A DNA stretch of 64,000 nucleotides from Marsupella aquatica (taxonomy: Eukaryota; Plantae; Marchantiophyta). Location: contig OZ316892.1 in assembly GCA_973895155.1 (NCBI GenBank), forward strand, positions 23,413,168 to 23,477,167, given 5' to 3'. Position 1 is the first letter of the stretch. Every line of letters begins with the position of its first letter. A program made the translations under genes and the position numbers. The notes under the pieces were generated by a model. That model worked only from the letters and a program-made list of their open reading frames with translations, ran no database searches and had not been told where the DNA came from. Below, piece after piece: positions 1-35,687 of the stretch.

Positions 1-49
1 TCATTAATAGAAAGCCTTGATAAATCCTTAATAGTGTTATTGCACACAT

Positions 50-2413
50 CTAATCTAACAACATATCATTGAGTTCCCCATCGTCCGGTGTTCTAGGTAG
101 CTCTTCTTCAATGTTTGGCTCATTTTCTTTAGGCTCCTCCTGGTCATCAGTATCCACATAAATGCTAGTACCAATGACTCCCAACTGCCCACCAACCGGA
201 GGCTGAACTTCTTGTCCCTGGCCACCTTCACCGGACACTTGTGCTTCATCGTATAGAGTCCAGACAGATTCCAATGTCATAATCCGACTCCTCAAAAATT
301 CTACCTGAGTCTCACCTTTGTCAACAGCACACCCATTCCGAGAGTTGAGAAGTGCAGCCACCAATGTTGACCCAGTTCCACAACAAAGGTCTGCCACCCA
401 GTCCCCTTTCTCACTGAAATGATTAACAAACCAATCACCCAATGCAATTGGTTTTTGGTAAGGGTTTACAATAAACCCTAATGGACTCACAGACTTTGTA
501 GTAACACAGGGAACTTTCACAATGTTCACCCTGCTTTCATCAGGAGCAAAATTGTACATCTCCTTCTTTCGGACTCCATCCTCACTGTAATAACCAATTG
601 ACCAGTTCTCAAAGGCCCAAGCTAGCCTTGGCCCAGAAGGGTGCTCATGGATGTTTGTCTTCTCCCATATACCGGCCTCAACTCCGCAATTGCAAACCTT
701 CTCAAGTGCGCTCATAACGCTATTTGTCTGCTGCAAGGAATGGATCACAACAAACCTCCACATTGGAGAGGTGGTGATTTTAGCAAAATTAGTAACCATC
801 TCATTTACATCCTGTTCAGTGAAAGGTTCCTCGTCAAACTGAGAACCAGGGGCATTGAAACCGTATAGGATGTCTGCAATTGCCAAAGTGAAATGTTTTG
901 GCTCTAGAAAGGTTTCTAGTTTCCGAATATCTCCAACATGAAGAGAATATGAGAATGCGTCTCCATTTGCATTCTTCCATTGATGTTGAGATGAAGCTGT
1001 AGCAATTGATGAGATATTTAGTCTCCGATTGTGTTTTTCAATTGCTTCAAGAACATAGTTCTTGAAGACGTAGGGGATGTCGCATGAAGGAATCTCAACC
1101 TCCACGCCCTCGTCAAATTCATTTCCAAAAATGACTTTTTTCTTCCTCTTTGAACTGATTTTGAACTGCACATTAAACAAAACTCTTTGTAAGATTTCCA
1201 AACACAAATTTTGAATGCCACCAGTGATACAAGTAACACTACCTGCATTCAATATCTCAAATATTTGCTTTGAATATATATAACTGAAAACAAAGGGACA
1301 TAAGGACATTGTGCTTACTGCTTCTGTGAGCTTTTCGCACCAAGTTGAAAGGACTTTCACATCGGTTTCCTGGGGAAACATTTCCCGGCATGTTGCCCAA
1401 TCTTTTTGACCAGAAATCTGCAGGAACAATTTCTTTACCTTTGCCAACTTCTTAAGTGTCTCACCTTCTTTGAACATTTGTTCTAGAGTGATTTTCTTTC
1501 CAATTACTCTGTTTAGGAGTCGCTTCACATGCTCCTGATTGGAAAGCCCCTGGAGAGCTCTGAAGACCCTCAAATTGAAATGCCCAGAGAGCTTGTTCAT
1601 TTTGATTTCACTTACACTCAGCGGTTTAGGTTTAGCTTTTGATTTACCTTTTGATGTTGCTGATAGCTGCTTGGCCATGATTGGCTTTGTTTGACCAAGG
1701 ATCTCAAACTTTTGCCACATAGAGAAAATTTTATCTTGGAGCTCCCAAATCTCCCCAGATTGAAAGGCAATCTGAAATGTAGGGTCATGTTTGGCCATTG
1801 AGTCACGAACACCTGGAGTGTAATCAAGCATACATTCCTTACAACAAGCTTCTTGCAACTCTTTAGTTGACCCCACATTCATTTCCATGAAAATATTGTG
1901 ACAGGCACGAACTTTGTCAATCGATGTCATGGTTTTCCGGTACTCCTGGTCGTAGTTATGCTGGAAAGCCAGCATCCTGATCTCATGTCTCGTTAGACCA
2001 GAGTAAACCCATGCCTCAATCTCACCGTACACTTGCTTTCCATACATTTTGAAAAGTTCAGCCTTTGCACGAGCTCCATGATTACCGCCAATCACTCGAT
2101 ACTTCCATACCCTAGATTTAGTAATGTCCCACTCATGAATTGTGGGACAATCTGTTGGATCAACTACAACAACAAATGGAGCCGTGAAGTTGGAAGGGTT
2201 TTTCATGAGCAACATTTTGATGTTCTCTACATGTAGCCGATCTACAGGTCTAACTAAAGTTGAATTCTCACCCTCATCTTCAAAAATGAGATTATTGACA
2301 TGCAGAAGCACGCTGGTCCTCTGGACTCTGCGTTCAAGCATGAGCTTTGCAAGTTCAGCCTTGATGGCATCTGTCTCAAATGAAGCCAACGGCGTCTCTT
2401 CTTCCTCATCTCC
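50..2413 (-). CDS. Uninterrupted exons 2-3 of the ParB-like/DNA amino-methyltransferase gene (the 804-aa ORF, which reads through an in-frame 153-nt intron)
   Basis: Open from 2413 to the stop at 50 and carries all ParB-like and MTase motifs. The AT-rich 51-codon stretch VSTMSLCPF...LFNVQ is bounded by GTAAGC...TGCAG. Confidence 0.75.
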   Translation of the reverse strand, partial: GDEEEETPLASFETDAIKAELAKLMLERRVQRTSVLLHVNNLIFEDEGENSTLVRPVDRLHVENIKMLLMKNPSNFTAPFVVVVDPTDCPTIHEWDITKSRVWKYRVIGGNHGARAKAELFKMYGKQVYGEIEAWVYSGLTRHEIRMLAFQHNYDQEYRKTMTSIDKVRACHNIFMEMNVGSTKELQEACCKECMLDYTPGVRDSMAKHDPTFQIAFQSGEIWELQDKIFSMWQKFEILGQTKPIMAKQLSATSKGKSKAKPKPLSVSEIKMNKLSGHFNLRVFRALQGLSNQEHVKRLLNRVIGKKITLEQMFKEGETLKKLAKVKKLFLQISGQKDWATCREMFPQETDVKVLSTWCEKLTEAVSTMSLCPFVFSYIYSKQIFEILNAGSVTCITGGIQNLCLEILQRVLFNVQFKISSKRKKKVIFGNEFDEGVEVEIPSCDIPYVFKNYVLEAIEKHNRRLNISSIATASSQHQWKNANGDAFSYSLHVGDIRKLETFLEPKHFTLAIADILYGFNAPGSQFDEEPFTEQDVNEMVTNFAKITTSPMWRFVVIHSLQQTNSVMSALEKVCNCGVEAGIWEKTNIHEHPSGPRLAWAFENWSIGYYSEDGVRKKEMYNFAPDESRVNIVKVPCVTTKSVSPLGFIVNPYQKPIALGDWFVNHFSEKGDWVADLCCGTGSTLVAALLNSRNGCAVDKGETQVEFLRSRIMTLESVWTLYDEAQVSGEGGQGQEVQPPVGGQLGVIGTSIYVDTDDQEEPKENEPNIEEELPRTPDDGELNDMLLD

Positions 2414-3535
2414 CTGAAAAATAACATGGCTTGCAATGAATTTTAAGAAGAATTCAAAATGCAAACCATTTTCATTATTTCAATGCAATTATGCGCGATA
2501 CAAGTATCGCTCCCAACATTCATTGCTAGACAAATAAACTTACCAGGGGAATGCTAACGACAGCTGAGGTTGGACCTGAGGTAAGGGGTAATCGTTCTTC
2601 GGATTGATGCATTGACACAGCTGGAGTGCTTATTGCACCACTTGAATCTGCAGCTAGAGCTACTCCTGTGCCTCCAATCCAACCTGTCCTCTTCTTCTTT
2701 GCAAGTGAAGTTGATGGCGATGGAACCTCTGCCTCGACAGGTACCAATTCATCCACAACTCCCCTTCCATGACCTCTTCCACGACCACGACCTCAACCAC
2801 GACCAACACTTGAGTAGCGCCTGGGCTTGCCTCTACAGATTGAGGTGCTTCACCTAGAATCACTCTCATGGTAGCTTCTACTTGGGAATTCCCTTTCCCA
2901 TGTCCCCCGCTCCCACTAGCACAATCAACTCCTTTTGCAACTGAAGATGCGCCACTCCCGCTAATGGTTGGCTTCCTTACTTTGATCCTTCGTGTGGGTT
3001 TAAACTCTTCACCCACGAGTCTCTTATACTCTTTCTGGACAAATGGCAGCATCAAAGGACTCGAATCATCCACAACATTAGCAACCTACTCAGGCTTGAA
3101 GATCTCCATCTCAATTGTACTCGCGACTTCCTTCACAATAGGATCTTCGGGAAATTTGTCTAATGTTGAGAGATCATACAAATCCATGTCCACTACAAGG
3201 GCCACAAAACCCTTGCTTCCACACATTGTGAGGAAGCTCAATCCAATAGCGACAGATTTTTCCTTCCCATGACCCTTCTTAAAGTCACATGCGGCAACCC
3301 CAATTACTGGACCAAAGGAGAGTGTAATCTTCTCTGTTTTCTTCACTTGAACCCAAAGAACGGGTGTCTCCCAGTCAGCTGCTTCCTTGGACAGCATTTG
3401 AGTATCTCGAAAGTACCAAGGTCTCCTCACAAACTTTTGTTCATCACAAATATCTTCTATCGTCTAGATCACATTACACAAAGTTGTCATGAGGTTCTCG
3501 GTCTCAGCAGACCCTGTCCTTGCACTTCCTTCCAT
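50..3535 (-). pseudogene. Spliced ParB/Srx-like domain + beta-class N6-adenine/N4-cytosine DNA methyltransferase fusion gene. Reconstructed exons 3535-2544, 2413-1319, 1165-50; exon 1 is damaged
   Basis: C-terminus has beta-class amino-MTase order: LHVGD...LAIADILYG (DPPY-like motif IV), IWEK, NPYQKP, then VADLCCGTGSTLVAA (motif I, FxGxG-like). N-terminal VRPVD...PFVVVV...YRVIGGNHGARA...AFQHN resembles ParB/Srx. GT-AG phase-0 introns at 2543-2414 and 1318-1166 join the frames. Exon 1 (ATG 3535) has stops at 3464-66, 3086-88 and 2793-95 plus a frameshift near 2810. Confidence 0.8.
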
Positions 3536-3743
3536 TGTTTTCCTTTGGCAGATCAAATTTGAGATCTACACTGCTTGATCAATCCCACGAGCGATACAAG
3601 TATCGTACTTTGCTTTCTTCTGAATACGGCATCCAAGTTGTTTTCTACTGGGTCCAAGAACCTTGAGCAGGGGCGTCTGTTGGGAGCTGCTATTGATTCT
3701 CATGCGGTTCTTGTGATGCCTAGACAGGAATCACTCGGCCGGT

Positions 3744-6700
3744 TAAGTGGGTAAAGCAGGAAGGCACCCTAGGAACACCTTAGTATAGTGACAAAACAAG
3801 GAAAATATAAACAATTAGGGGCAACCATGGAACCCGGGCAGAGGCCGGAGGTAAGGCTAAGGGTGAAAACCCGATTAGGGTTAGGGCGCGTTAAGCGTCG
3901 GCGGCTAGGAAGGATCAACGGGAAGAAGGACCGGCAGAGGAGAGGGGTAAGGAGCGCTTGCAGGAGATGGTGGCTCATTTGCGAGCACGAACTAGGCAGA
4001 CGACTACGGGAGGCCAACTACTGTCAGCTGCTTAGGCAAGCACTCGGGGAGAGAATTGATACCGACGATCAACCTAAGGAGGGTATGAGCAACGTCAATC
4101 AAGCGGCACATTTCTAGGGATGCCTGTTCGAACGGGCAACTGAGTACATCAAGACTTACGAGGACGAGGAGTCAGAAAGGGCAGCTCGAGAACGGCAGGA
4201 GCTCGCTCGATTGTGGGAGCTGTAGAAGACGGCTTTCTTAGGAGGCGAACTCATCAAGGACGAGTTCCTGTGGACGCCTACTTCCAATCAACTCGACGAT
4301 CTTCTGTTTTGCAAAGACAGCGTCGTCGGCATCCGAGAGGCCATCAAGAACTGCAACGACATACACTGGGAATTAAAGGGTAGCACGGAAAGGTGGACCC
4401 AGGCAACGGTGCTAGGAGAAACCTCCACGGCAGCAGAGATGAAGAGGAAGGGAGCCGTCAACGATGAAGCCACCCGGCAAAAAGAACGAGGTCGGCGGCA
4501 CCAAAGAAGCCAGCCGAGCAACAGAGCAGGAGGCAGGGAGAAGCCAAAGAGGAGGAGGTCGATCCCATCAAGGCCATTCCAACCAGGGATGACACCTGGA
4601 AGGGCTGGGCGGCAACCCTACCGGTGGAGGTGCAACTACATTTTGCACGGGAGGAGGATGCATGCTTTACGGCCATGCAGACCAAGAAGTACCAAGGCTT
4701 CATGGCCGGATCCGGCTTGGAGGCCTTTGTAAGATTACCATGGCTGAAGCCGGAGGTACCGGAGTCAGACCTATTAGAATTCGTGGGGTCATGGGAACCC
4801 GAGACCAATTGCACGAGGATATATGGGAAGGATTTCTATCTTACTCCCAAGGTAATTGCCGAAGTGTTTGGCCTGCCGATAGGCAATAAGACCAAAGTTG
4901 ATACCAGGAAGACCTTGCCTGACAAGGAGTTCCGGTCGTTCCCCGGGCCATCAACGAAGAATGGCTTCTTCCGGAACACCTGCACCAACCCGCACATAGG
5001 AGAGATGATCGACTTCTTGCGGGTGACCATGCATTGTAACTTGCCAAGGGCAGAGATCGGCAAGGCACAGGTCTATCTGGCAGAAAGGCCAGGCCCAAGC
5101 CGGGACTACAACGGGTACCTCCTCAACCAATTGAAGAAGATCTTAAAGGAGGAGCAGCAGGTAATTGGCATGGGGAGCGTGTCGCGGCTTGGCTATCACA
5201 TGCCGCTGTTGTGCCGGTATGCCAGAGGTCAGACTTTTGCCCCGGTACTTCCCCTGCAGGTAAGGGCACCCGAGGAAGCTCCAACGCCGAGGCCGTTGGC
5301 TGAGAAGCCTCCACCACCTGTTAGTCCTACGATCGAGCAGGTGTTTAGGCCCAGGAAGGAAGACTTGCCGATGCAGCAACCAGGCATGCAGAGTCTGCTG
5401 AAACTACTGGAGAAAGAAAAGAGATCGGCATCGGCAACAACAACGGCAACAGCAACAATGCAGGACACTACTACAGAGGTAGGCCTACACCGGCTCACAA
5501 GAGAAAACCCCTTTGCTGGAGACAAGGAGAGAATCAGGCCGGAATCCAAGCCAGGTGTTCGAATGTACGTGGGAACCTCAAGCTCCGAATCTGAGGCAGA
5601 ATTGCCTGAAGCTCCTATCGACGAAGAGGAGAGGGAGAAGCCGGACGTCCAAGAGGTAGAGGAGGCAGTGGAGGACTGCAGCCATGATAATTCCGGCTAT
5701 GGGTCGGACCATCACGTTCCAGGAGTAAGGACCTGTGGCCGGTTTGTCCCCACACTTCCAAGGGTAGTGCGAGGGGACCCCAACCAGCAGAGTAGCCCTG
5801 AGTCTCCCCCACCAGATGTTGCTCCCCCGAGCTTCGACGGCATAAAACAGACGGTGCAGGAATTTCAGCAGCGAATCAAGCAGGAGGAAGAGGCCGCCCT
5901 GGCTAAGGAAAAGGATTTACCAAGAGGAGATTGGCCGGAGGACATCAGGCGGCTAGCCAAAAAAGGAAGCAAACCTCTAGCCACGATTGAAGAGATCCGC
6001 AGGACGGCTTGGGAGCAGAGGCCACGATGGGCGATGCCGATCACTTCTACTTACTCCACCTACGCTAAGAATAGAGCCATGGAGTATGGTGAGATGTGTG
6101 GGGAACTTGCGCTCGGCATCTTTGGAGAGGAGTTGGAGATAGGACCCTTTTTCCATAGGGAGCAGTTGGAGAAGCACCAATTAGAAGAAGCGGTGGCTTT
6201 AGAGAGAAGCAAGAAGGACGAGGTCATTCGGCGGCTTAGGAGGATGGAAGCCGAGATTGAAGATCTAAGGGCGGCCAAGAAAGCCCAAGATGAACTGCGG
6301 ATTAAACGACATGAGCTGAACATCATGCAGGGGCAGTTGGACACCGCGCAGGCTGATAATCAGAATATCAAGGATAAACTGACTCAGACGCAGGAAGAGT
6401 TGGCCGACACGATCAAAGAAAGGGAAAAGTGGAAGCAAGAGCTGAAGAATACAGAGGAGGCCCACATAACAGCCAACAGCCGGGCCATGGCGGAAACCCA
6501 AAGAAAGGAATGGGCGTTGAAAGGGGAGCTCGAGAAAATCCGCGGAGCCCTTGAGCAGAAGGAGGTCGAGTTAGGGAAATCCTATCAAGGGATTATGGCG
6601 CTGCAGCAGGAGCTTGCGTCCCTGACGGCCAGCTTCAAGGCCGACCTAAGGGAGAAGGACGAGATGCTCGAACAGACTTACGCCAAGATGAACCAGATGG

Positions 6701-8418
6701 AGTCTGTCATCATTGCAGAGCTCGACAAGGAGCTAAGAGCAACCCAGGAGGAGAGGGCTACCTTGAAGAAGGAATTGGAGGAAGCCCACAGGGAGCAGGA
6801 GGAGGCCAAAAACGAGCTGGAGGGGGCACGTAAGGACCTGGATGAAACCCAAGAGGAGTTGGAGGAAATCACGAGGAAGATGGAGAACCTACAGCGGCGG
6901 GCCGACAACCAAACAGAGCGGCTAAAGAAACAAGCCGCAGTATTTAAATGCTTAGCTGCAGCAGGTCCATCTCCCGTTGGGACAAACCAGTTACCAGGGG
7001 TGGTAATTGCCGAAGGACAAGCCGCGTCAACTGCACCAGTGCCGGAAGTAAGTGGGAAGGGGAAGGGACCAGCTGCCGAGCCACCAACGAAGAAGAAGCG
7101 GAAACCTTCAGGGTCAAGGAGTAATACGACTTCACAGGCCATGGTGATCAAGGAGGTAGACCCAGCACCGACCCCAGATAGGGTCACGGCTAAGGATCCA
7201 ACTACCCTAGGGGAAGGGGAGGCCGAAGCCGAGGGAGTGGCTGAAGCCGAAGCCGTGGGAGTGGCTGAGGCCGAAGCCGTGGGTATTGCCGAAGCCGGTG
7301 TCGAGGCTGAAGCCGAAGGTGGACCCAGTCAGGCCGATGGAGAGTTGACTCGGTCAAGGGCAGGTAATCTGTCAGTAGGCGGGCCAACGGCAGTGGCTGA
7401 GGAGGAAGTGTTGGGGGCGTCCATTGAGGATCCACCACCGGTGTCGTGACGGTGCAAGGGCGCCGTTCCTTTTAGGGAGGGCGGACGTGGAGGGAGGAGG
7501 CGTGAGTGGGCAGGGCGAGCACGGATCTCCACGTTTAGGATTAGGATCAGAACCAGGAGCGACCCTGACACTTAGCTTAGTGGGATTGCGGTCCCACTGG
7601 TAGGAGCAACACTTGTGCTCCTGCCTTGCTGTACATAGGTAGATTCAGGCAAGTAGATTACTGTTAAGTAGATTAGGCTTACGATGCAAAGAATGGCGGA
7701 TCCACTACCAGGATAAGTACCTGGGCAGCGGGGAGCTCAGGGCCTCTTCTTTAGCAAGTTTTTAGTTTGCACCAGCCGGGCTGGGATCAAGTAGTACGAG
7801 AAGCTCTCGGTTAGTCATACAGTGACCCTTGTGTATATTCATGTTTCCTCATGCCTAAGAGCTGAATAGAGTTGGCCTCACGGCTTAGTTCGCAGAACTT
7901 GTGTATGAGACGTACTGTTTGTATGGCAAGTGCATGGTATGACTCAGTCAGAATGAGTCATTTTGCTATTTGTGTGTCGCATTAACTTGTGTGAAGAGTG
8001 CCCACATCAACAGAAGGAAGGAAAGTAAGCAGGGGAGTGAGAGTTGGATGTGTCGAGCTGAGAGAGGTCTTAGCGGCTTAACCAAGCCTATTGGGGATCA
8101 TTCCGGCGGCGGAATCCAAACATACCTAACAAGAAGACAGGGGAAGACAGGGGAAGGCCTATATTAGGCCGGCTACGTATCTCATGACCCGATGAAGGAT
8201 CTGTCCAGTATATGTGTGTAAAATGTTAATAGTAGTAGTAGAAGGTTAGCAGCATCCCATGCCGCTAAGCCGCGGAAACGGCCTCGCCAAGCACGAAACC
8301 TGCGGGAATCGGCTTGAGCTGGGGGGTTTCTTGGGTTTAGGGAGCCATGGGACGCACCACAGTTCTAATCCAGCAAGGGTCAAGGCTATTGTTGTCCATC
8401 TGCACAATGACATGTAGT
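3744..8418 (+). mobile_element. Retroelement-derived insertion (no pol seen) flanked by GCCGGT direct repeats
   Basis: Abrupt shift to GC/purine-rich composition; GCCGGT at 3738-3743 and 8419-8424; carries a long TE-like ORF; purine tract at about 8130-8158. Confidence 0.55.
4624..7449 (+). CDS. Retrotransposon accessory-type protein (plant-mobile-domain-like N-terminus, long coiled coil, acidic Ala/Glu tail); 3' part of a longer decayed ORF starting near 3826
   Basis: 941-aa open frame. AFVRLPW...LLEFVGSW...LTPKVIAEVFGLP resembles the extra ORFs of plant Gypsy (Tat/Athila-like) elements. E/K/Q heptads and AEAEAVGV repeats are present. The upstream part has TAG stops at 4115 and 4222 and a frameshift. 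Confidence 0.6.
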   Translation: MEVQLHFAREEDACFTAMQTKKYQGFMAGSGLEAFVRLPWLKPEVPESDLLEFVGSWEPETNCTRIYGKDFYLTPKVIAEVFGLPIGNKTKVDTRKTLPDKEFRSFPGPSTKNGFFRNTCTNPHIGEMIDFLRVTMHCNLPRAEIGKAQVYLAERPGPSRDYNGYLLNQLKKILKEEQQVIGMGSVSRLGYHMPLLCRYARGQTFAPVLPLQVRAPEEAPTPRPLAEKPPPPVSPTIEQVFRPRKEDLPMQQPGMQSLLKLLEKEKRSASATTTATATMQDTTTEVGLHRLTRENPFAGDKERIRPESKPGVRMYVGTSSSESEAELPEAPIDEEEREKPDVQEVEEAVEDCSHDNSGYGSDHHVPGVRTCGRFVPTLPRVVRGDPNQQSSPESPPPDVAPPSFDGIKQTVQEFQQRIKQEEEAALAKEKDLPRGDWPEDIRRLAKKGSKPLATIEEIRRTAWEQRPRWAMPITSTYSTYAKNRAMEYGEMCGELALGIFGEELEIGPFFHREQLEKHQLEEAVALERSKKDEVIRRLRRMEAEIEDLRAAKKAQDELRIKRHELNIMQGQLDTAQADNQNIKDKLTQTQEELADTIKEREKWKQELKNTEEAHITANSRAMAETQRKEWALKGELEKIRGALEQKEVELGKSYQGIMALQQELASLTASFKADLREKDEMLEQTYAKMNQMESVIIAELDKELRATQEERATLKKELEEAHREQEEAKNELEGARKDLDETQEELEEITRKMENLQRRADNQTERLKKQAAVFKCLAAAGPSPVGTNQLPGVVIAEGQAASTAPVPEVSGKGKGPAAEPPTKKKRKPSGSRSNTTSQAMVIKEVDPAPTPDRVTAKDPTTLGEGEAEAEGVAEAEAVGVAEAEAVGIAEAGVEAEAEGGPSQADGELTRSRAGNLSVGGPTAVAEEEVLGASIEDPPPVS

Positions 8419-8639
8419 GCCGGTGAGTCAAATCTGAAGCTCAAAAAATGAAGAAAGGCCGACGATACTGGCAATCAATGTAAACTATCAGTTTGATCAC
8501 TTAATCTGCTTCTCAAAACTCAAAATTGCAGAAGAATTGCCAATGCCCGTAGCAATGCAAAAGAGCAACTTACAAAACAATTGGAACAAAAGGAAAGATA
8601 GATTGACAGACATGACAAGCTGCAACTCCTTCTCTGCCG

Positions 8640-9575
8640 ATGGTGACTACGATCAACTCACTGTCCTCTCCTTTGTCGCCCTTTGGCTGCATCAATTTGA
8701 GCGAGTACTATGTCATGATTGTTATTGTGGGAACGGCCAAATCGACAGCGATGAATTCTAAGTCCTTCAGACTTGCAAGTCTTCCTCCGCTCTTTGGGAA
8801 TGTTGCCATTGAGCAAAGAGAGAAGAACGAGAGAACAAGCTTTGCTTTCTTAACAAGCCAACACCTTACAAACCCCCAAGAGGATCCATGAATCCACGAT
8901 CGGGCTACAGATACAAGATTGCTGGCTCTAATGGAGTCTCTAGTTTCTGATGTTTTAACTGGGATTACTGAATTCAGCTTAATTTTGAGAACAACATGAC
9001 TCAATCCCAAGAGAGATACAAGCACCGCAATTTGCTTTTGGATTGGGCCAACACTTTCCAATCCATCCGCCGATTCCTCTTTAGATGACAAAACACAAAG
9101 ACTCCTACTCGAAAGCAATACGACTATCTCATATGTCTTTCACAAGCCACACGGAATGCCTCAAAAACTATTTGTGCAAAACCAACTAAGGGAAATGACT
9201 CAAGAAGCAGACCAAATCCTTTTCACAGTACAAACCATGGTTCGCACTGTCTTCATTTGCGCCGCCTCTAGAACTTGTTTTGGTGCTGCCTACAGGGTAA
9301 AACTATTTCTTTTTGAATCAGCCAGGCCACACCACCTCCTCAGTCTCCTCTCTAGCCAAACAATGCTCCTTTCCAAAATCTCTCACACGAGCTCTCACAA
9401 AGACAAGAAAAAATGGGAAACATTGTATGGGAGAGGATATAGACATGAGGCCGTCACTCTTTGGGCACTCAAAAGATTGTCGAGCCCAACTTTTGCTGGG
9501 CACATTTTTGCTTGTAAGCGAACGGAACAGAGTATTTGTGTTTGTTTAGGTGGGGTTTTGTCAGGTCCACCTTAG
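8640..9575 (+). pseudogene. Decayed ORF of unknown function, divergent partner of the MTase gene
   Basis: ORFs 8640-8891 and 9156-9575 are in the same frame and separated only by two TGA codons (8889, 8997) consistent with CGA>TGA. Confidence 0.45.
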
Positions 9576-10319
9576 AGGTCACGAGTGACCCAGTCCAATG
9601 ATCTTTGCAGCGCAGTCCGTCCTAAATCTACACTACTCAATCCAAAGAGTGATACAAGTATCGCTATTGGCTTTCGGATCCGACCAACAACTACCCAAGA
9701 GAAAATAAGGGCCCCAACATAATATGAAGAACTGCGAGATGAGCAGCAGACGGCTTTACAATCTTCAAGAGACAGAATCTAAACCATGATTGAAGTATTT
9801 TCACTCCTGCACCATGAGACTAATTGAGTTGGCTCAATGCACCAAGCAATACCTGTATTGTTGAGGGTTTGAAACTTAGGTTTGAATGCAACTTACGATA
9901 CAAGTATCGCAAGTTTCTTTCTACAAAGCTGATTACGATACGAGTATCACAATTTTCTTTGGAAAGTGGAAAGCTTACTCTTAAGACCAGAATGCGCATC
10001 TGTATGGAGAGGAGGTTTTCTTTGGGTTGGGTGAGAGCTTGATTGTGAAAGAGGACTTGAAAAAATGAAACTTCTTTCCATGAGCGGGCAGTCATATTTA
10101 TACTTTTGGAGGTAGTTATGGTTAATTTCTAGCTTAACCCTAGTTAAACTTAACCATAGTTAGAGCCTACTGCGCGGTTATGCACAGTTTCACCATTTCT
10201 GTAAATTTCTGATAACCAAAGAATTTACAAATGCAAAGGTTGATACCCGTATCGGTGTTTGCATTCCTCCTAAGCATGGATGACTATTTTTCTGGAATGC
10301 ACAATTTGTATCGAGTTTT

Positions 10320-13300
10320 ACATGCCTTAGAAAAAAAATTGATCATGAAAAACGAGAAGGGTGGTCACCCTTCTCAATAGGTCCGACATCATGTTCACTA
10401 AATGATTAATCTTTGAGAAGAGGATGGGTGTGGTGTTCTTGGCCAAATACTCATCATAGATATGTGCCTTAAGAACATCCATAGAAGCTATCTTAATCAA
10501 AGGCTCAATCAGATCCAAAGATTGAGTGATACTGAGTTGGAGAGCATGCTCAAGTTCATTCTTCTTCTTACTCTTTTCCAGATGCTGTACGTTTGAGTTT
10601 GGATATCTTCTTCTTGAGGAACTCATTCTCCTTCTCCATCTTCTTCTTATCTGTGGCATCACTCATAGTGGAGATCTTTTCAAGGATCTGCCCTGGTTTC
10701 ACTCCTAGTTTATGAGCAATATCAGTAATGGCCTTCTCCATCACAAAGGTCTTCCTCTTCACCTTCTAAAATGTTTCTGAAATGATCTGGAAGTCATGTA
10801 GGGTGTCTTGGAAGGCATGGTCGAGTGCATCCGGAAAATGAGTCGGGTCGACAAAGGCCAGGTCAGAAAAGTCCGGGCAGAAAACCAGGTCTTTCGAGGA
10901 TTCAACTCTGGTGGTTCCTCATCCTCACTGTTGTCAGAGGTGGCTTGAGTGATATCCGGATCTGCTTCTCCATACTTTATGAAGCTAAACTTGGCTACCA
11001 GTATTTTCTTCTCTTCTTTGAACAAGACTCCTTCAAAACTATACAGATATACCAGGTAGCAAGAGAGAGGAGTAGGCCCTTATTGGAAAGATTCTATACT
11101 AGCTTCCTCATTAGATCAAAGATGAGCTTGGCCCAATTGACCTTCCTTTCCCCCTTATAAGCAACAACAATGGTAGAGCCAACTCCAACAGTAACTCTTC
11201 TTGGCTTCTCAGGATACAGCAAAGGTAACAGGAAGCTGAAGACTCATTTCAGGTCAGGATCCACACACTTGGAAACATTGAATCCGTCCTTATTGTTGAT
11301 GGCTCCTTTGAAGTAAGGGAGAATCAGATTAACAGCTCTTCCTACTAGACCTTCTCCTTCATCCTCCAAGACAAAGGCTCCTACAACCATCATCTGTGTC
11401 CATCATTTAGGTCGGCCTCGGGAGGTATCTTTAAACTCAGTCGGACACTCCTTGGATCGTATCTCTCTGATCATGTCTTCATTCTGATAACTCTAGGGAA
11501 ACTCCATCAGAGACTCACAACCCATTTTGAGCAAAGACTCTCTTAGTTTGACCTTCTCAGCTTCACTGTCCGGAATAGCTGGCTTAAGGATTTCATGGCA
11601 ACAGGGACCTCCTTCCCCTTCGATCATCTCACATGGGCTTTAACCGGCGTGGGTGCAGGGGATATCAAGGTTGAATGTCCCTTGGAAACTCAAGAAGTGG
11701 ACATTTTAGCTTGACCTGTCTTTGATCCATACCCGATCCATAGAGTTGATGCAAGCAATGGATTGGTTTCTATCGAATGATATGCCTACTCTGTAGTGAG
11801 CTCTACAATTGTGCAACCTCAAACAATTCAATCTCTTTAGCGTCGTAAGATGATAGAGATGTTCGGGTCGACCTGGCTACAACTTTTTTGATCAGGTGAC
11901 AACCTAATCTTCACAAATCCATCAAGATTCCTTCAATCACGGTGCAGGTCCATCAAACGTTGGTGGAAATCAGACTCAATCCGGCCTTCAGTAGCGGCAT
12001 CCGGGTCGACCTGGCTGCCCTTTTCATAACTGACTTGTCCACGATCAGGATCTCAAACTTCTTGCCTTCACCTCCAGCGTAGGAGTAGGCATTCTCCTCA
12101 CAACAATTTAGTCAGTACCCTCATATCCAGGCTCTCATCATGCAATGGAAGATTGGTCCTATAATCCGGACCCAGGATCCTCTAGAACCAAAAGGGTAGA
12201 GCCTCCTCACTCTACTGCTTATACAGCCAAATGCGTTTGGGAACTCAAAACCTACTAGGTTTGGCTTCGAAAGGTGTGAGAAGCCGGATTGACTCTCCTT
12301 CCTTATATCCAGATTCTGCTATAGTTCGGCCTGTGATTTACTTATGGTTTTAAAACTTTGGCAGGGGATAGTTGATGTACAACACAATCTAGTTTCAAGA
12401 TGTTCTATCTCATTGTTGGCTGTAGTGCAAAGTTCTGGGTCGATCCTCCAACTCTCATATCAGTCCAGGTTGACCTCAGATGGGCTTGAAAGTCGTACAA
12501 CACTTCAAAGTAATCTTCAGGTCCCTCTTCAGCCTCATTTGATATCTTAAACTTAAAAATTTAAAAATTTATGGTTAGTTAACCCTTTTCTCATAAATAT
12601 CCACATCTCACAAATCTAGTCCTACATGCTTATAGTACTGGTGCCCCTAGAGCGCATGCTCCTCAGCCTTTTTCAATCCAAATTGTAAATACTGTTATGC
12701 TTCTACCCTAGTCTTAAAGGATTTATAAACCTGGTCACTATAGCCTCGGACCTGAGGCTCACAATATTCCCATGACTCATAGATGCCAAGAATAAATCCT
12801 CTTATCACAACATAGTACTTCCTCCGCGTGGTTGAATCTGTAAAATATTGTGATACTGGCTTTAAGGGTTGCCGTGCCCCTTTCCCATGATGTATAACTC
12901 CAGAAGGGGTACTTGACTCCCTTCCCCAGCTCTTGAATCACCTTCAATCGTCACTAAGCTTGCCGAGGTACTCGCTGCGCCAGCCATCATCATTGGATCT
13001 TCCTTTAGTTCTCTGTTCCCAGCGATGTGCTCATTCGTGTGAACGGACTGGAGATTGCTGCTATCAATTACCATTGTCTTCTCCATCTTTGGTGGATTCA
13101 TACACCTGTTCAAGCTACGCAGGCAACTCTTGAACAGGTTATGGAGGTAATCTGCAAGCTTACTTCCTACCACCAATATCGACATTACAAGCAAGAGAAA
13201 TATCCAGGCCAACAATCGTTTCACATCCATCACGCTTCTCTCTCAATCTCTCTCCTCCGCAACTTTGGATGAGAAGGGGTATTAGGATTCAGCATCTGAC

Positions 13301-14563: not shown

Positions 14564-15039
14564 GGATCGCCCTTCAATTGTGGCATATATTTACATAATT
14601 TACTTGGGAAATAATGGGTATGCCAGTGTGATGTTAAAGTCCTAAAACTATGTTGCTTAATTATGTGACTGCAAATTCTGCCCATCCTGATTGAGGAGTA
14701 ACTGACAAGGAGGTTTACTATGAACCTGAAGTAGAGACAGGACAAGGAACTAGTGTAGCCTATGCTTATGAGCAATGGGTAGAGCCTGATTGGTTGTTTG
14801 GTGGGGAAGATGTACAGGTAGTTGAGTCTGCCTCTTATCCACACAGTGTCAGGAGAGCATGTGGTAAGTTACACTCATGAAACAATAAACAATATTTGGT
14901 TGGGAAATGGGCATTCTGTGAAGATGGTCAGGTTGCAAGTTAGATTGCAATTGGTGTCTACTATTTGACATATATAAAGGTATTGATGTTACTATTGTAT
15001 GATGTGCCATGGATGTGGGATGATCATGCACCAAGGACA

Positions 15040-15930
15040 AACTCGGGTCTGGTGATTTCAGTTTCAGATTAGTTTGGGTTAATATGGAAACGACATTTGA
15101 GTAACGATGATGACACGGCCATGCAAATGAACGCCTGCCTAACTTACAACACACGAAGGCTTCTGTTTTGTCACTTCTTGGTTTTCGATCTTGTATTTGT
15201 CGAGCGGGAACTTTTTATGAGTCTATCATTTTTCGTTAACAACGTAAGTTAGCTATGTTGACAAGAGAACTCTGCACATATCCGTTAGCTAGTGGGAAAG
15301 TCACTCATGTATGGAGAAACGAGTAAGATCAGAGTTGGGTGTTATACGCACGACCCCAATCGAGTATTCAGCTGCAAAGGAACAACTCGAGCCTGGCTAC
15401 ATATATAGTTTCAATTGATTACCCTGGATTGTCGAAAAGGCACTCGGGCGACAATGATGACCACGTTTCTTACAAGACACGCTTAATATATTAATTTTCG
15501 TCCCACATTCTAGCTACGATTGGAATCTGGCACTTCTTGTGTGGCCACGGGATCCATTCACACCTGAAGCTGGAGGTCCTTTGCCGGGAACCTTTGTTAT
15601 TTCTCTGTTTTGTGTCTTTTGCTCTAGATACAAGATGAAAAACTTTTAGACAATTCCAAATTTCTGTTTACAAGTGGCTTCCCATGTAGTGATGTTGTGT
15701 TTCATTGGTATGAACTAACAAAGAGCATCACCTATGCTCAAGTTATATATGGCTGTCACTTGTGAATTAGTATTATTTGGTTCGACAATGTTCTAAGTCT
15801 TTTATTTAAATAGATCAACTGAACCTGGCGAGGCCAATTCCACCAATTGCAAACCCAAAGAGCCCATTCTCCGGAGCCAAGAGGTACGTTAGTATTGGGT
15901 TCGGAGTGTTCAAAGTCATTATATAATAGA
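15040..15930 (+). repeat. Dispersed duplicated segment (copies at about 39310-40320 and 59440-60470)
   Basis: Colinear blocks shared by all three, e.g. gacaaactcgggtctgg...aacaacgtaagttagctatgttgacaagagaactc...gatccattcacacctgaagctggaggtcc. Confidence 0.85.
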
Positions 15931-18439
15931 TCAACAAAACCGAAAATGAATGAAGCCACCACGTTTGACAAAATTCCCCCATGGACTTTTGCAACCCTGA
16001 TGGACTTCAATTCAATGTTTTAATTTGTCAGATTTAGCTACGATCGATAGCAAGATTGACAGTCCTCACTGAAATATAACTTGTAAGTGGGTGGTCACCG
16101 GCTACAGCCAGTACTCTGTTCATTGCAGTGGGTTGCCAGTTTTGAGACTCTTTGTTGTTTGTCGACAAAGTTTAAGCGGTATGAAGATACTCCAATCCGA
16201 GATACTTCAATCTTAGAATTGTTGTCTGTTCTGTGAGTTTTCATTTCTGCACCACCACGAACTGCAATTTTGCCATTACCCTCTCCGTGATTGCAGAATT
16301 AGGCTAGCCTGTTCCTTTTTTGGCAAAACCATTCAGACAATTGTTGAGCCATATGTGAGCTAGGGGGATTTCTGAACAAATTTGAGCATTGTTTCTTGCT
16401 GGACTGTCCAGACAAGTGTCAGTCAGCTTTTGTTCGTCTAGAACATTCGCATGACATACTAGAATTAGACTAAAGTTATCCCATCCGATCAACCTAATTC
16501 TTTGATTCACCCCTGCATAGATAGGATATCAGAGTGCGATAGTTCCACTAGTCCTCTGTCTTAAGTCCAACCTAATCTTTTGAGCTCAGCTTCGTGGGGT
16601 TTTATTCGAATCGAGACGTACATTCGATTGATTAAATTTGAGTTACTTTCAATTCCTTGTTTGGTTCTTTCTTTGTCAAAATGTTCTCACACTCCATCAA
16701 CGTAATTCCTAGAGACTCCTTGCATAGAGTCGCTGTTGATTAGATTTATTGATTCAATCGATTCCATGTTATTTTCAGTTAACAGTTAAATGTAATGTAT
16801 GAAATTGAGAGTTCATTAGTTTCTATCTAAACTCTCTACTCAAGACTTTATTTAATTAGTCAAACGGCTGTCGGAGACATTTCTGATCAGTTAGCTCACC
16901 AAGAACACATTTGCCTCAGCATTTTCGACATTGTGAGCTTCTCAGCTGGATCGAAATGCTCCACTTTTTTTCTTCCCGTATTAATGTCTTATCGATTTGA
17001 CTTAGCAACTGAATGAAAAATGACCTTCAGGCCTTCCAGAAGACCTGCCCCAGCCTGCATCACACTTTGCAACGGTCCGGAAAGAGACTTGACATCGTAG
17101 GATGAAGTGTGCAGATGATGTACTTTTGATACCTCAATTGCTGTCCCTTCCCTTGCAATGATTTGGCATTAGTTGGAAGAAAAGTTAGAGGAGACCAATC
17201 CACCTCTTGCAAACCCAAAAACCCACTGTCCACAGTCAAAGCCAAAGCGGAGGCCAAACAAACAAATAGTACTTTGTCCACTAGAACCTCCCTCGCCTCC
17301 CTGCAACATAGATGGTTCAAGAGTTCATTTTGATTAGCCAGGTACTGAAGCTCATATCTAGAGAAACCAAAGCTGGTTAGATTAATTTTGTTGTTGTCAA
17401 TAGAACAAATAAAAGAACAAGTAGGAAAAGTTAACAAAAAGGTATTTAACCAATTACTTTGGTCATCCGAGTTATCCTTGGAATGGAAAACTTATTGAAA
17501 ATAAGAGTAAATTTGAAAATGAGCTAAAAGCATAGAAGAGCATTAATGTTTTTGTTAGTATATTTGTTTATTTATTTATGTGACGTAAACAATAAAATAT
17601 TTTGAGTGGTGACAACACAAAAGCTTGGTTCTCTAACCCGAATTGTTGCAACAGGAATTCTTGTTCTGTTCTGTGTCTTGAATGCAAAAATGGAATGTGA
17701 ATACCTGGCATGAACGGCTAGAATTAAGCTGCCCTCTATAGGGACCCTTTAATTAAAGTTCCAGGCTGCGCTTGCCTTTCATATGGAAGTCTATCGAAGT
17801 CACTGAGGCTAGTAGCTCTATTGCTCAATCTTTGAGCGGAGCAGAAGTCTGATTGAAAAGCACCGTGAATTTGTAGTATGACTCGATCACATCCTCAGCA
17901 ACGCGACTACACTGAGAAAATAAAATGCAATGGTCAGTTTAAGGTGATCGGCAACGGAATGAATTGATTTATGGCAGATGTTATTCGTTGTGAGGTTTAT
18001 TTCGGTTCACATAGCCTGGAGAAGTGAGAGTCAACTGTAGCTTCTTTCTATAACCATTCATGTAATAAATCTTTGACGTACGCCATTTTTCTATGCATTT
18101 TTCTGAACATCCAAAACGAATCGTTGTAAATCTCACTTGTTGTCTCAATCCTGTTTATCCAAGCTAGACAGTCAGACCTATAAATATATCTGTAAGGATA
18201 ATGCCTTGTGTTTAACGGCAGCATCCATATACTATTGAAGTTATAACTACTATATACTACGATTCTTGACTGGTTGACAATGTTCATGCAGCACAAGAGT
18301 AAGTTTCAATAACTAATACATTCTCTATCTCTGAGAAAAATTGTATTCAGTTTTCCCACCAGCCTTGGGTGGCAGGCCGTAGTTTCAATCTCTAGTACTG
18401 GAACCTTGGAGTGACTTGTATTGTTTCATAGCTTGTGTA

Positions 18440-20299: not shown

Positions 20300-21152
20300 G
20301 TCCAGTTTTCTGCAGCAGATAATATCGAGTGTTCTTAGGTCTTCTACGTACTCTCCGAATAGTGCTGGAGGTGAAGCATGTTGAGCAGTTTTGAATCCTA
20401 TTGCCAGTAAAAAGCTGGAAGTTCAAATAACAGTCGAAATGTGTATGGCGACATAAACAGAACTGATAATGTTCTGGAATAACGGTCCGTCGACGGTGTG
20501 AAACAAGGGCGACGATATGGTCAGGTCTCATCTCATCCAGAAACATTGCGTGGCCGCCGATGGAATCCGACGATCAAGTCTTTTTTTTCGACTCTCACGG
20601 CAATGATATCTGCCATCCCTTCCATCACACGAAGGTAATCAATTTTTATTATACATATCAGCACCGTCAGCGGAAACGGACTCCGTCGTGTATTGTGTGG
20701 TGAGAGCTCTAGTCTGAAGGATGCTGTAAAAAACCTCATGCACGTAACTACAACTCTTTACTGAAATCTCTACGAAACTAATTGTAACCTAGTATAGGGT
20801 GCCATGCATGCACAGGGGATAGTGTTGTCATTATTTTGCCCTTCTCTGCGGCAATGATTAATACAATAGAGGACCGAAAATTGATGCGGCAGGAGGAGAA
20901 GGGTAGCGCAACATACAATACCATGGTGTGGCTGGACAATCGCAGGATTCGGTTCACTGAGGTGGTAGAGGAGTGAGGCAACGGTGAATTTATGGTACGT
21001 ACAGGGCACAGGTTAGGATTTTCGGAAGGTCGTCAACTCGTGACATTCAATTCCGTGACGAAGAAGAACGAGAAGAAGTTGCGTTTGCATAAGCTGAACG
21101 AACACCTGCACACAGATCGAGGCGGCTGATCCAGGCAGCTCCAAGTTCGACA

Positions 21153-22367
21153 ATGGACGACTGTTCTCAAACGGTCGATTCGGCTTGCAGAAACAAAACT
21201 ACAGCGTTACACCTGAAGGTCGGCGCTACAGTGGCGATCGCCATTGCCAGCTCCATGGGGGTGCTGATCCCTCTAGCGGGGAAGCGAGTGAAACATCTGA
21301 GAACGGATGGGAATTTCTTCTTCGTAGCCAAAGCATTTGCTGCTGGGGTTATCTTGGCGACGGGGTTCTGCCACATGATCCCGGATGCCGTGAGCGCCCT
21401 TACCAACCCTTGCCTGCCGGAGAGCCCATGGGCCAAGTTTCCATGGCCAGGATTCATCGCTATGCTGGCGGCTCTCGCTACTCTCGTGGTGGACTTCGTG
21501 GGGACGGAGTATTACGAGAGAAAGCACAGCTTTGCAGCTCATGGACACGGGATGATCCATCACCACGGCGTTGCAGATGGCACAGAAAGAATCAACAAAG
21601 ACGGTCCTGTCGAGGATCATTCGCCTGCTGAGGCACATGGGCACGGACCTGGACTAATAGAGAAGGGGGGAGATGTTGAAAGCAAGCAACACCACCAACC
21701 GGATCGGAACAAAGAGAGCAACAACAGCAACGGTGGACCAATGCACATCGTCGGCATGAGAGCTCACGCTGCTTCGCATAGCCATAGCCATCCTGATGGG
21801 CAGCACGGTTCTTTGGACTCTGGAGGAACTCACCACGCAGGGCACGACCACGGACCGAAAGATGCCAGCCAGGTAACTGAAGCGTCTCTTCGGCATATAG
21901 TCATCTCACAAGTGCTAGAGCTGGGAATCGTTGCGCATTCCGTAATCATTGGACTTTCACTGGGAGTATCTCAGAGTCCTTGCACCATTCGACCACTGAT
22001 GGCAGCGCTCGTCTTCCATCAATTCTTCGAGGGCTTTGCGCTGGGCGGCTGCATTTCGCAGGCGGGATTCAAGAAGATGTCGGCTGGAATCATGGCGACG
22101 TTTTTTGCAATTACAACTCCGTTCGGGGTATGCTTGGGCATAGGAATTGCCTCCGGCTACGACCAGAACAGCCCTCATGCTCTGATTATCGAGGGCGTGT
22201 TTGACTCGTTATCTGCAGGAATTCTCATTTACATGGCCTTGGTTGACCTCATTGCCGCCGACTTCTTGAGTAGAAGACTACGCTGTGACCGCCAGCTGCA
22301 AGTAATCTCATTTATCGCTCTATTTGGAGGAGCCGGGGCCATGGCTGCGATTGCCATTTGGGCATAG
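21153..22367 (+). CDS. ZIP (ZRT/IRT-like) zinc/iron transporter, ZIP4/ZIP9/IRT3-like clade, intronless
   Basis: KAFAAGVILATGFCHMIPDA, CLPESPWAKFP, His-rich loop with [67 protein letters not shown] and terminal AIWA. Confidence 0.96.
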   Translation: MDDCSQTVDSACRNKTTALHLKVGATVAIAIASSMGVLIPLAGKRVKHLRTDGNFFFVAKAFAAGVILATGFCHMIPDAVSALTNPCLPESPWAKFPWPGFIAMLAALATLVVDFVGTEYYERKHSFAAHGHGMIHHHGVADGTERINKDGPVEDHSPAEAHGHGPGLIEKGGDVESKQHHQPDRNKESNNSNGGPMHIVGMRAHAASHSHSHPDGQHGSLDSGGTHHAGHDHGPKDASQVTEASLRHIVISQVLELGIVAHSVIIGLSLGVSQSPCTIRPLMAALVFHQFFEGFALGGCISQAGFKKMSAGIMATFFAITTPFGVCLGIGIASGYDQNSPHALIIEGVFDSLSAGILIYMALVDLIAADFLSRRLRCDRQLQVISFIALFGGAGAMAAIAIWA

Positions 22368-31387: not shown

Positions 31388-32166
31388 ATGGACTCTTGTT
31401 TACCAACGGCTGACTGGAAAATCTGTGCTACATGCACAAGAAGCTATCTCAAAAGGTCCGACTCAATTTCACCCGGATCACGGTGTCTTGAATGTTCAGA
31501 AGATGCACTCAGGCAGCAGGAGGCTCAGCTAGATATGTTCCAGCGAAAGCTGAATTTCCTAGGGTATCGGTTCTACAATGATGCAGAAAGAGGCGATACA
31601 AGTATCATAGTGGGAAACAGAAAAGATGAGCCCCTATTTGCTCACAAACTGATACTGGTCTGTAATCCAATCCTGTGATGATATACTCATTTGGTGATTT
31701 GCTCGTTTTGCGCTTTCAAGAAGTAGACTAATAGCTTGAAGTCCGTGAGGCCCGATGTTGATTTATAATTAATCTCCTGACTACTTTTTTTCCTGACAAA
31801 AATGACAGTCCAGCAAATCCTCCGTACTCGATAAGATGTTCAAGTTCAAGATGCTGGAGGAACCGACAGGAACAATTCGTATTGAAGATGCTTCTCTTGA
31901 AGCCATACAAGCAATGATTAGGTTCTGCTACGTTGCTGAAGTAGATTTCACTAGAGCGCGTGCCGAAGAGGTACGAGAAGTCGCCCATAAATATGACATT
32001 TCTCTTCTCCAAGATATATGTGAGGACTATCTGGCCACAACAGTTAACAGAGAGGATGGTGATTGCAAGAAAGTTTGACTCTCATGTTATCACAAGGGCG
32101 GCCTCGAGGTTTTTCAGCGAAAATCATGACAACAGTTTTGAGGATAATATGTCGAACATTCAGTTA
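31388..32166 (+). pseudogene. BTB/POZ protein type B, copy B3, frameshifted; exons 31388..31657 and 31809 onward
   Basis: Paralog of B1/B2. A 14-nt deletion (aacctgccaaagag) between AGAG microhomologies near 32052 shifts the frame to a stop at 32078. Confidence 0.8.
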
Positions 32167-34782: not shown

Positions 34783-34934
34783 TCCTGAGAAGGAACTCAA
34801 CCATTCTAAGGTAGTGCAGGGAACTCAACCATTCTAAGCTAGTGCAGGGAATCTCGTTCGCGATCTTGTTCATTTCCAAACTGTATTACATGCGAAACAA
34901 AACGGAAGTCCTTGTTCACTCAAAGCCAGTCGAT

Positions 34935-35687
34935 ATGTCGGAGAATGTGCTAGATATGTGCCAGCGAAAGCTGAGGTTATTAGGTTACCAGTTTGACAAT
35001 GATGCAGGGGAGCGAACAGGCGATACGATGATCATAGTCGGAGGCAACAGAGATGAGCCGATATTGGCTCACAAATCAGTACTGGTGTGTGATCCAGGAG
35101 CCCAATCCTCTGACTATTTGCTCGTTAATTCGCAGTTTCCTCTTTCAAGAAGCAAAATAGTTAATTTCCAAATAGCATGATAGAAGTCTCCATGTTGTAG
35201 CAATAGCTCTTCACAGCATGTACCGCAGAAGTAGATGAAGTCCTGCAATCCAAGTTACAGTCTAAAATTGATTTTTATGGCATTGACGTTTTGTCCCTGA
35301 GAAAATTGGCAGACAAGCGAATCAACAGTACTAAGTAAAACGTTCCAAGCCAAGACGGGGGAACAGCAGATAGGAGCACTTTATATCAATGATGCTTCTC
35401 TCAAAGCCATACGCGCAATGATTAGATTTTTCTACATTGCTGAAGTAGACTTCACTGAAGCTCCTGCCGAAGAGTTAGCGGAAGTCGCTCTTAAATATGA
35501 TGTTGCCCGTCTCCGGATGATATGTGAGGAACATCTAGCAAAAACAATTAACATAGAGAACATGACAAAGAGGTTGTTGTTTGCTAAGAAGTTTGACTCC
35601 TCTATTATCCTGGCAGCGGCTATAAAGTTCTTTAAAGCAAACTTTGACGATGCCCTTCCGGGTTTTATGTCGGAATGTTGTAAGTAG
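34935..35687 (+). CDS. BTB/POZ protein type A, copy A3; join(34935..35084,35313..35687)
   Basis: MSENVLDMCQRKLRLLGY...AHKSVL|TSESTVLSK...INDASLKAIRAMIRFFY...LKYDV...CEEHL; GT-AG phase-0 intron; open throughout. Confidence 0.82.

Follow-up and report, generated by a model that had tools for sequence, protein, structure and literature searches.

A broken ParB-methyltransferase gene in the liverwort Marsupella aquatica, probably the accessory gene of a Sola-type transposon, and its associated palindrome array

Transposons equipped with a ParB-methyltransferase gene have already been described. In Sola1-1_Ec32 of Ectocarpus, a gene of 1104 amino acids coding for a ParB domain and an N4C/N6A methyltransferase (MTase) lies opposite the transposase, the best match of which is Sola1-1_PPa, and self-binding and self-modification of the element have been proposed, citing Iyer 2011 and the Bostrychia paper (PMC12477816). 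Sola transposons are characterized by terminal inverted repeats (TIRs) and a 4-bp AT-rich target site duplication (TSD) (PMC3627910; supplement of PMC12477816). The gene considered here is found in Marsupella aquatica, at the beginning of a stretch of 64,000 nucleotides (assembly GCA_973895155.1, contig OZ316892.1, positions 23,413,168 to 23,477,167 of the forward strand; hereafter, the window), and had been presented in a preliminary description as the best candidate in the window for an undescribed system, a view superseded by the published Sola1-1_Ec32 type. As in the latter, a ParB-like domain is fused to an amino-MTase in a protein of approximately 1,000-1,100 residues encoded on the strand opposite the transposase, the likeness being one of description and not of sequence alignment. 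Unlike Sola1-1_Ec32, the Marsupella copy belongs to a land plant and is broken, and palindrome arrays are present in its introns and leader, a feature that goes unmentioned in the main text of PMC12477816. With moderate confidence, the locus is read as a broken copy of an accessory gene belonging to a cut-and-paste DNA transposon, likely of the Sola type; the intact product is predicted to bind, as a ParB-like dimer, the element's own palindrome and would likely methylate nearby. The design of the accessory gene is thus already published, while the palindrome array with its lineage variation is new. For land plants, the papers searched describe neither this gene nor its palindromes, although it may already be annotated in Repbase (for instance under Sola1-1_PPa) or in the subscription literature, both of which lay outside the search. 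The suffix PPa is presumably Physcomitrella.

Related modules are combined differently elsewhere. The red algal Plavaka genes PAG2 and PAG3 also provide a transposon-borne PF01555 methylase and a ParB-like domain, and the Bostrychia gene coding for a ParB-oxygenase is accompanied by adjacent arrays of tandem inverted repeats, with VANDAL/VANC named as a precedent (10.1101/2025.02.11.637652). However, in these EnSpm/Plavaka elements the methylase is fused to SET and the ParB domain to a 2-oxoglutarate-dependent oxygenase, in separate genes. VANC of Arabidopsis VANDAL elements is an accessory protein with element-specific, fast-diverging, non-coding target repeats, and the two systems may work alike, but VANC removes silent marks whereas the Marsupella family is predicted to write one (PMC10398659). 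MpDN4MT1 of Marchantia and N4CMT of bdelloids are, like the present gene, intron-bearing eukaryotic beta-class amino-MTases of prokaryotic origin; they differ from it in having an SPPY motif, in producing a proven N4-methylcytosine (4mC) and in being host genes, and no ParB domain is mentioned in either paper (10.1101/2021.02.12.428880, PMC8885841). A ParB-type domain N-terminal to an amino-MTase, as here, is also found in phage and prophage ParB-MTases of ParB-terminase loci and in the chlorophyte-type Dam with its ParB and helix-turn-helix (HTH) domains (PMC4738411). The chlorophyte-type Dam is, however, a group 2 enzyme (EcoKI/TaqI-like), whereas the Marsupella family is of the permuted beta class, and PMC4738411 states that such MTases do not occur in land plants.

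The gene consists of three minus-strand exons (coordinates in table 1), and the motifs that had been listed for it, namely ADILYG, NPYQKP, DLCCGTGSTLVAA and YRVIGGNHGARA, all lie in one minus-strand frame at 50-2479. A metagenome scan yielded 30 loci. Six of them (L001-L006), which share an assembly prefix, have 60-70% identity to the MTase exon of the window; of the others, three are short and distant fragments, and the match of the remaining 21 is confined to the C-terminal motifs. In L003, the three exons form an uninterrupted, in-phase reading frame of approximately 1,000 residues. In L001, exon 2 contains a stop, and L004 has a frameshift. Exon 1 is approximately 33% identical to the first exons of L001 and L003; the profile of its N-terminal region found no match among the collected proteins and none in the Pfam families. 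The two spliceosomal introns that had been proposed are borne out: both are GT-AG introns with 32% GC and 39% T, exons 2 and 3 having 43% GC. Intron B is stop-free as well as in frame, so that outside support is needed. It is found at the same codon in 5/5 close relatives spanning it (L001-L005), with differing lengths, with the acceptor CAG before the same F-x-K...KRK exon start and with the GT donor after the same codon; furthermore, protein P0293 is continuous across the junction in the protein alignment.

The window copy is a pseudogene. Exon 1 contains a TAG at 3466-3464 and a second one at 3088-3086, both of which align with Trp codons in L001 and L003, so that the stops interrupt a conserved coding exon; since the alignment places Trp codons there, a CAG-to-TAG origin of the stops was rejected. 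The 992-nt length of exon 1 implies a frameshift near 2800, and a further TGA is found at 2795-2793. To these lesions are added a Leu in place of the near-invariant Pro of motif IV and an insert of approximately 5 kb upstream of the gene. The GRGRGR tract that had been singled out is indeed present, but lies in the broken part of exon 1, contains the TGA and is not conserved, L001 and L003 having 0 and 2 GR/RG pairs, respectively. The observed/expected CpG ratio is 0.41-0.46 in the window exons vs 0.79-0.83 in five relatives, a depletion that would be expected from long methylation by the host. Rescue of the stops by RNA editing was rejected because of the nuclear context and the frameshift. 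The earlier suggestion that this gene could write a non-canonical DNA mark therefore fails for the window copy, which, although inactive, points to the intact relative L003 and to a candidate target sequence.

A ParB/Srx-like domain had also been claimed, and stands as a predicted fold, not as a Pfam ParB match, which was obtained neither in the window nor in the family proteins (0/47); likewise, the ParB-side alignment profile matched no ParB chain among PDB sequences. For exon 2, the AlphaFold2 model computed from an alignment of 53 sequences has a predicted local distance difference test (pLDDT) value of 89 and a predicted template modelling (pTM) score of 0.75, while the single-sequence fold of the 788-residue frame was unusable (pLDDT 34). 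With the exon-2 model, the first places of the Foldseek ranking were taken by Noc (E 4e-6) and by structures of ParB with CDP, 13/268 matches having E<=0.001, and VIA gave PadC (Z 10.2, root-mean-square deviation (rmsd) 2.9, 100 residues aligned), KorB (Z 9.1, rmsd 13.0, 174 aligned) and pNOB8 ParB (Z 8.3, rmsd 5.3, 209 aligned). Residues 143-350 are weakly matched by the DNA-binding domains of KorB and ParB (Z 5.1 and 4.1). On the model, the N-terminal part of exon 2 has the ParB/Noc (ParB/Srx) fold. Several residues of this part are conserved in the family, namely the Arg of LVRP (28/33), the His of GGxH (43/46) and both residues of HN (38 and 41 of 45), with the consensus G-G-[NGT]-H and H-N. 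A homodimer of exon 2 formed through the ParB domain was predicted with a score of 0.59 vs 0.00 for the best of three controls, with at least 82% contact agreement between runs and pLDDT of at least 69; the mark applied is attained by 21/30 solved one-chain pairs and 0/23 single chains (in eukaryotes, 17/29 and 0/30). However, ParB/Noc dimers have already been solved, so that the predictor may have reproduced known structures.

The C-terminal part of the frame is matched by Pfam N6_N4_Mtase (PF01555) above the curated cut-off (E 4.8e-7), and PF01555 is matched in 26/47 family proteins. The best matches of the MTase family profile are 8urk (E 2e-19), DpnA, CcrM, RsrI and MboIIA, all beta-class and DPPY-type, with N4CMT (E 8e-8) and PvuII (E 1e-3) below them, and the family D-x-P-Y motif is aligned on DPPY. 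Motif IV precedes the S-adenosylmethionine (SAM)-binding motif I, as in the beta class (profile alignment to 8urk, MboIIA and RsrI), in agreement with the original class assignment. The D-type motif IV attributed to the gene is correct as regards the Asp, SPPY being found in 0/62 family rows, but the DILY of the window copy departs from the family, which is mostly D-x-P-Y, and is not an intact (D/N/S)PP(Y/F/W). The second Pro is found in 43/49 relatives with a residue at that position, Leu in none, while the motif-IV Asp is kept in 45/48 and the Tyr in 36/50; QKP and the D..G.G SAM loop are kept in 46-48 of 52-53 rows, including very distant members. A comparison between copies shows purifying selection on exon 3, the proportion of synonymous differences being 0.75-0.86 (saturated) in 14/15 pairs and that of non-synonymous differences 0.13-0.25; for the L004/L005 pair, the synonymous and non-synonymous divergences are 0.79 and 0.06. 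Intact copies are probably active MTases. N6-methyladenine (6mA) would be a somewhat better candidate for their product than 4mC, the DPPY-type motif favouring it only mildly because this MTase domain has repeatedly switched between the two specificities, as reported in PMC8885841.

The mobile-element setting that had been proposed is supported by the relatives. A convergent open reading frame (ORF) ends 323-476 bp beyond the MTase stop in three of the six close metagenome loci (L002, L004 and L006), and corresponds to DUF7869 in L006 (E 9e-50) and L002. D180, D258 and D300 are kept in 20, 22 and 22 of 22 DUF7869 ORF rows, as a DDD-like triad, while the transposase profile gave no meaningful match in the PDB. 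DUF7869 is tentatively taken to be a Sola-like transposase, on the parallel with Ectocarpus. Three of the five named ParB-MTase models of Riccia adjoin a DUF7869 gene at 1, 2 and 2 locus tags (P approx. 4e-6, for 47 DUF7869 models among the matches listed vs five ParB-MTase models). Thus, the arrangement of a ParB and amino-MTase fusion opposite a transposase is encountered in L002, L004 and L006, by their MTase exon, and in Riccia, by locus tags. The transposase of L006 (966-1300, minus strand) and L002 (1945-2300, minus strand) ends in a conserved aromatic-rich domain (FWLAKV...ITWY), which by eye resembles a chromatin-reader barrel and has no Pfam match.

The second set of observations concerns the palindrome GATAC-NN-GTATC, which, with at most one mismatch, occurs eight times in the window vs 0.93 expected, a count reached in 0/100 shuffles; 7/8 copies lie in 1226-10253, where they are found in each of the two introns, in the leader and on the promoter side. 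The relatives carry GCGA[T/G]AC-NN-GT[A/C]TCGC, often extended to 20-22 bp, and both palindrome arms contain CpG, the target of host methylation. With the 14-bp pattern and up to two mismatches, window positions 1-10400 and L001, L002, L004, L005 and L006 together gave 48 hits in their non-coding DNA (8,131 bp) and 3 in their coding DNA (19,155 bp), and the remaining 53.6 kb of the window gave one hit; the palindromes occupy introns, leader and the spacer beside the transposase. L003 has 0 hits of the main palindrome and at least 15 copies of the variant CGATCC-NN-ACATCG, with the same outer CGA/TCG and spacing and a different core, and 13/13 copies checked for position are non-coding.

The relatives lie beside a likely transposase and carry a repeated palindrome in their non-coding DNA, so that the transposon likely uses the intact form to locate its own DNA and mark it chemically. 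The intact protein would dimerize through the ParB domain, the helical domain would read the palindrome repeated in the element's own non-coding DNA, and the MTase would modify an exocyclic amino group, adenine N6 (or cytosine N4), at or near the palindrome, so marking the element. In the weakest step, the mark would shield the element from silencing by host 5-methylcytosine (5mC). That it does so, or that it regulates the genes of the element in the manner of VANC, is put forward tentatively, by analogy; the VANC protein is unrelated, and VANDAL is a Mutator-like element. More speculative still, and on balance unlikely, is that land plants harbour a still-active, Sola-borne, self-targeting writer of 6mA (or 4mC), whose ParB-type dimer reads an element-specific, CpG-flanked palindrome multiplied in the introns and leader of the element, methylates there and shields the element, with site and protein diverging between lineages. 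If this were true, a bacterial DNA mark would be the weapon in a VANC-like arms race, and plant genomes would contain a source of amino-methylation that is defined and can be mapped. In any case, the published guess of self-binding, self-modifying transposon ParB-MTase genes becomes directly testable.

Several observations weigh against this reading. As for the transposase, the L004 ORF is a C-terminal piece without a Pfam match, assigned by its likeness to L002 and L006, L001, L003 and L005 stop 305-460 bp after the MTase stop with no transposase seen, and for the other two of the five Riccia genes the closest transposase among those listed is 101 and 326 locus tags away. No transposase is present within the window, the edge of which is reached 49 bp after the MTase stop; linkage of the window copy is therefore inferred, and its transposase very probably lies tail-to-tail just beyond position 1. 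The palindrome pattern was derived from the same sequences in which it was counted, positions having played no part in its definition, and palindromes also lie in the spacer adjoining the transposase, one copy (in L006) even falling within the span of the transposase ORF, so that they may be transposase sites. In the MTase, the full DPPY is found in 6/61 relatives, the first Pro is replaced in most of the 61, variants such as DMPQ, DVWY and DLPR look degenerate, and motif IV does not fix the target base (PMC8885841). Finally, ParB CTPases use GERR and EN motifs for the binding and hydrolysis of cytidine triphosphate (CTP). At what would be the corresponding positions, the family has GGNH and HN, which makes a CTP clamp, or CTP hydrolysis, doubtful.

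The alternative that survives best retains the same transposon and gene, and takes the palindromes as subterminal-type sites of the transposase, with the ParB-MTase acting without them or non-specifically. Subterminal repeats are common in cut-and-paste transposons, and clusters of copies are indeed seen toward what is presumed to be the end of the element (9650-10241) and in the spacer that adjoins the transposase. However, the ParB-MTase gene also has them at high density in its leader and both introns, which lie kilobases away from the element end, a palindrome of 14-16 bp would fit a ParB/Noc-type dimer as modelled, and the Bostrychia ParB gene PAG3 is likewise adjoined by inverted-repeat arrays (10.1101/2025.02.11.637652). 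On this evidence, this alternative appears improbable, and it is with moderate assurance that the reading of the palindrome is assigned to the ParB-MTase and not to the transposase.

Rather less probable is that the MTase domain is dead throughout the family, or a reader module, and that the protein merely binds specific sites, its presence there blocking methylation by the host or activating the element by a steric effect. The loss of the first Pro of motif IV in most members, with several degenerate motifs, would agree with it, as would the Haliotis members that keep a ParB and a Tudor-like domain with no MTase match, and the DIRS-borne N6A-MTase domains reported as likely inactive (PMC4738411). 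It has to be reconciled, however, with the retention of the motif-IV Asp, second Pro and Tyr, of QKP and of the SAM loop across very distant members.

The distribution of the family bears on its origin. A full HMMER scan gave 585 homologous proteins at E<=0.001. Thirty were looked up for their taxon among the 150 matches listed, and the names include Chara braunii (6), Riccia sorocarpa (5), Adiantum nelumboides (4) and Ginkgo biloba (2), together with the sea cucumber Holothuria leucospilota (1 cluster) and the abalone Haliotis (1 cluster, 4 species); 14 family proteins carry ParB and MTase motifs in order. The family is a transposon accessory gene found in streptophytes, animals and other eukaryotes and not a lone plant acquisition, contrary to the initial proposal of a separately acquired plant gene. 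By occurring across streptophytes and in some animals, it is a candidate enzymatic source for the disputed amino-methylation in plant DNA. The phylogeny that had been recommended was obtained by a quick search with 58/59 rows (P0053 dropped; labels guessed for P0022, P0039 and P0081): it places the streptophyte rows on one side, together with 13 further rows, with a Shimodaira-Hasegawa-like approximate likelihood ratio test (SH-aLRT) value of 86, but names no donor, and, since the bacterial outgroup is attached by a long branch, no order of events is claimed.

Three peculiar architectures were met in the family. P0116 and P0283-P0285, from four Haliotis species, combine the ParB-like domain with a Tudor-like C-terminal domain, with no MTase match, and may represent a domesticated gene; P0069 has a sterile alpha motif domain fused ahead of the helical region of the family; P0004 (Chara braunii CBR_g41648) has two tandem ParB-MTase units in one gene model, likely because the annotation has joined two copies of the element, either adjacent or nested.

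A domesticated host gene such as MpDN4MT1 or N4CMT, writing a genome-wide non-canonical mark, would account for the introns and the conserved exon structure, and has precedents in Marchantia and bdelloids, but is very unlikely, as the window copy is broken, the relatives are multicopy, often broken (L001, L004) and transposase-linked, the motif is of the D type and N4CMT is far down the profile matches. Bacterial or phage contamination, or misassembly, suggested by the prokaryote-type domains and by a prokaryote-like ParB-HTH-MTase (P0302) with the same order, can be practically dismissed given the spliceosomal introns at conserved positions, the CpG depletion, the plant neighbours, the prokaryote genome loci, in all of which (10/10) the match is confined to the C-terminal 21-61 residues of the MTase core, and the viral contigs, which gave no match for the MTase, the transposase or the paired palindrome and so leave a giant-virus origin without support.

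Table 1. Coordinates of the ParB-MTase gene, its surroundings and neighbouring genes in the window.
Feature	Position	Strand	Description
Exon 1 (broken)	2544..3535	-	ATG at 3535; ~190-residue conserved N-terminal region, then low-complexity linker
Intron A	2414..2543	-	130 nt, GTAAGT...TTTCAG; palindrome copy at 2495-2510; equivalent intron in L001 and L003
Exon 2 (open, 365 residues)	1319..2413	-	Predicted ParB/Srx-fold domain, residues ~26-161 (LVRP, GGNH, HN motifs)
Exon 2, rest	within 1319..2413	-	Predicted HTH-like helical DNA-binding region, residues ~161-245, then helical linker
Intron B	1166..1318	-	153 nt, in frame, GTAAGC...GTGCAG; degenerate palindrome at 1226-1237
Exon 3 (open, 371 residues)	50..1165	-	Beta-class amino-MTase; acidic tail
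Exon 3 motifs	874-863; 466-449; from 391	-	Motif IV DILY; NPYQKP; SAM-binding DLCCGTG
Proximal 5' leader	3536..3640	-	Palindrome copy at 3592-3605
GC-rich insert (~55% GC, ~5 kb)	3640..8900	+	993-residue coiled-coil ORF at 4468-7449; divides the leader
Distal leader/promoter side	8975..10260	-	~70-bp repeat units; palindromes at 9016 (degenerate), 9650, 9847, 9896, 9936, 10241
Candidate element end	10170..10380	.	Right-hand end; AACCG at ~10180 on the minus strand, resembling the termini of Sola1-1_Ec32, or else 22-bp palindrome 10354-10375, then AATA
ZIP transporter	21093-22367		Single exon; neighbour
F-box/KIB1-4 propeller gene	42780-43922		Neighbour
BTB/POZ gene copies	31400-32100, 34900-35700, 62054-62530		Neighbours; at least one apparently frameshifted

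Upstream of the gene, a TATA box, TATAAATA, is found at 10102, where the surrounding sequence resembles that in L001, and is separated from the leader by the GC-rich insert. The perfect 22-bp palindrome is GAGAAGGGTG-GT-CACCCTTCTC, and, with AATA directly after it, is a possible element end. Within the insert, no long terminal repeat, TIR or TSD and no strict palindrome copy were found, and its 993-residue ORF had no Pfam match above cut-off and no PHROG match; the insert is probably a retroelement fragment. The ORF product is a coiled coil with Ala/Glu repeats, and a purine-rich tract is present near 8130. The ZIP, F-box/KIB1-4 and BTB neighbours, with the named relatives, indicate a plant host for the locus. 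A dispersed repeat family of approximately 1 kb, with copies 78-82% identical, is present at 15033-15941, 39310-40325 and 59442-60472 of the window.

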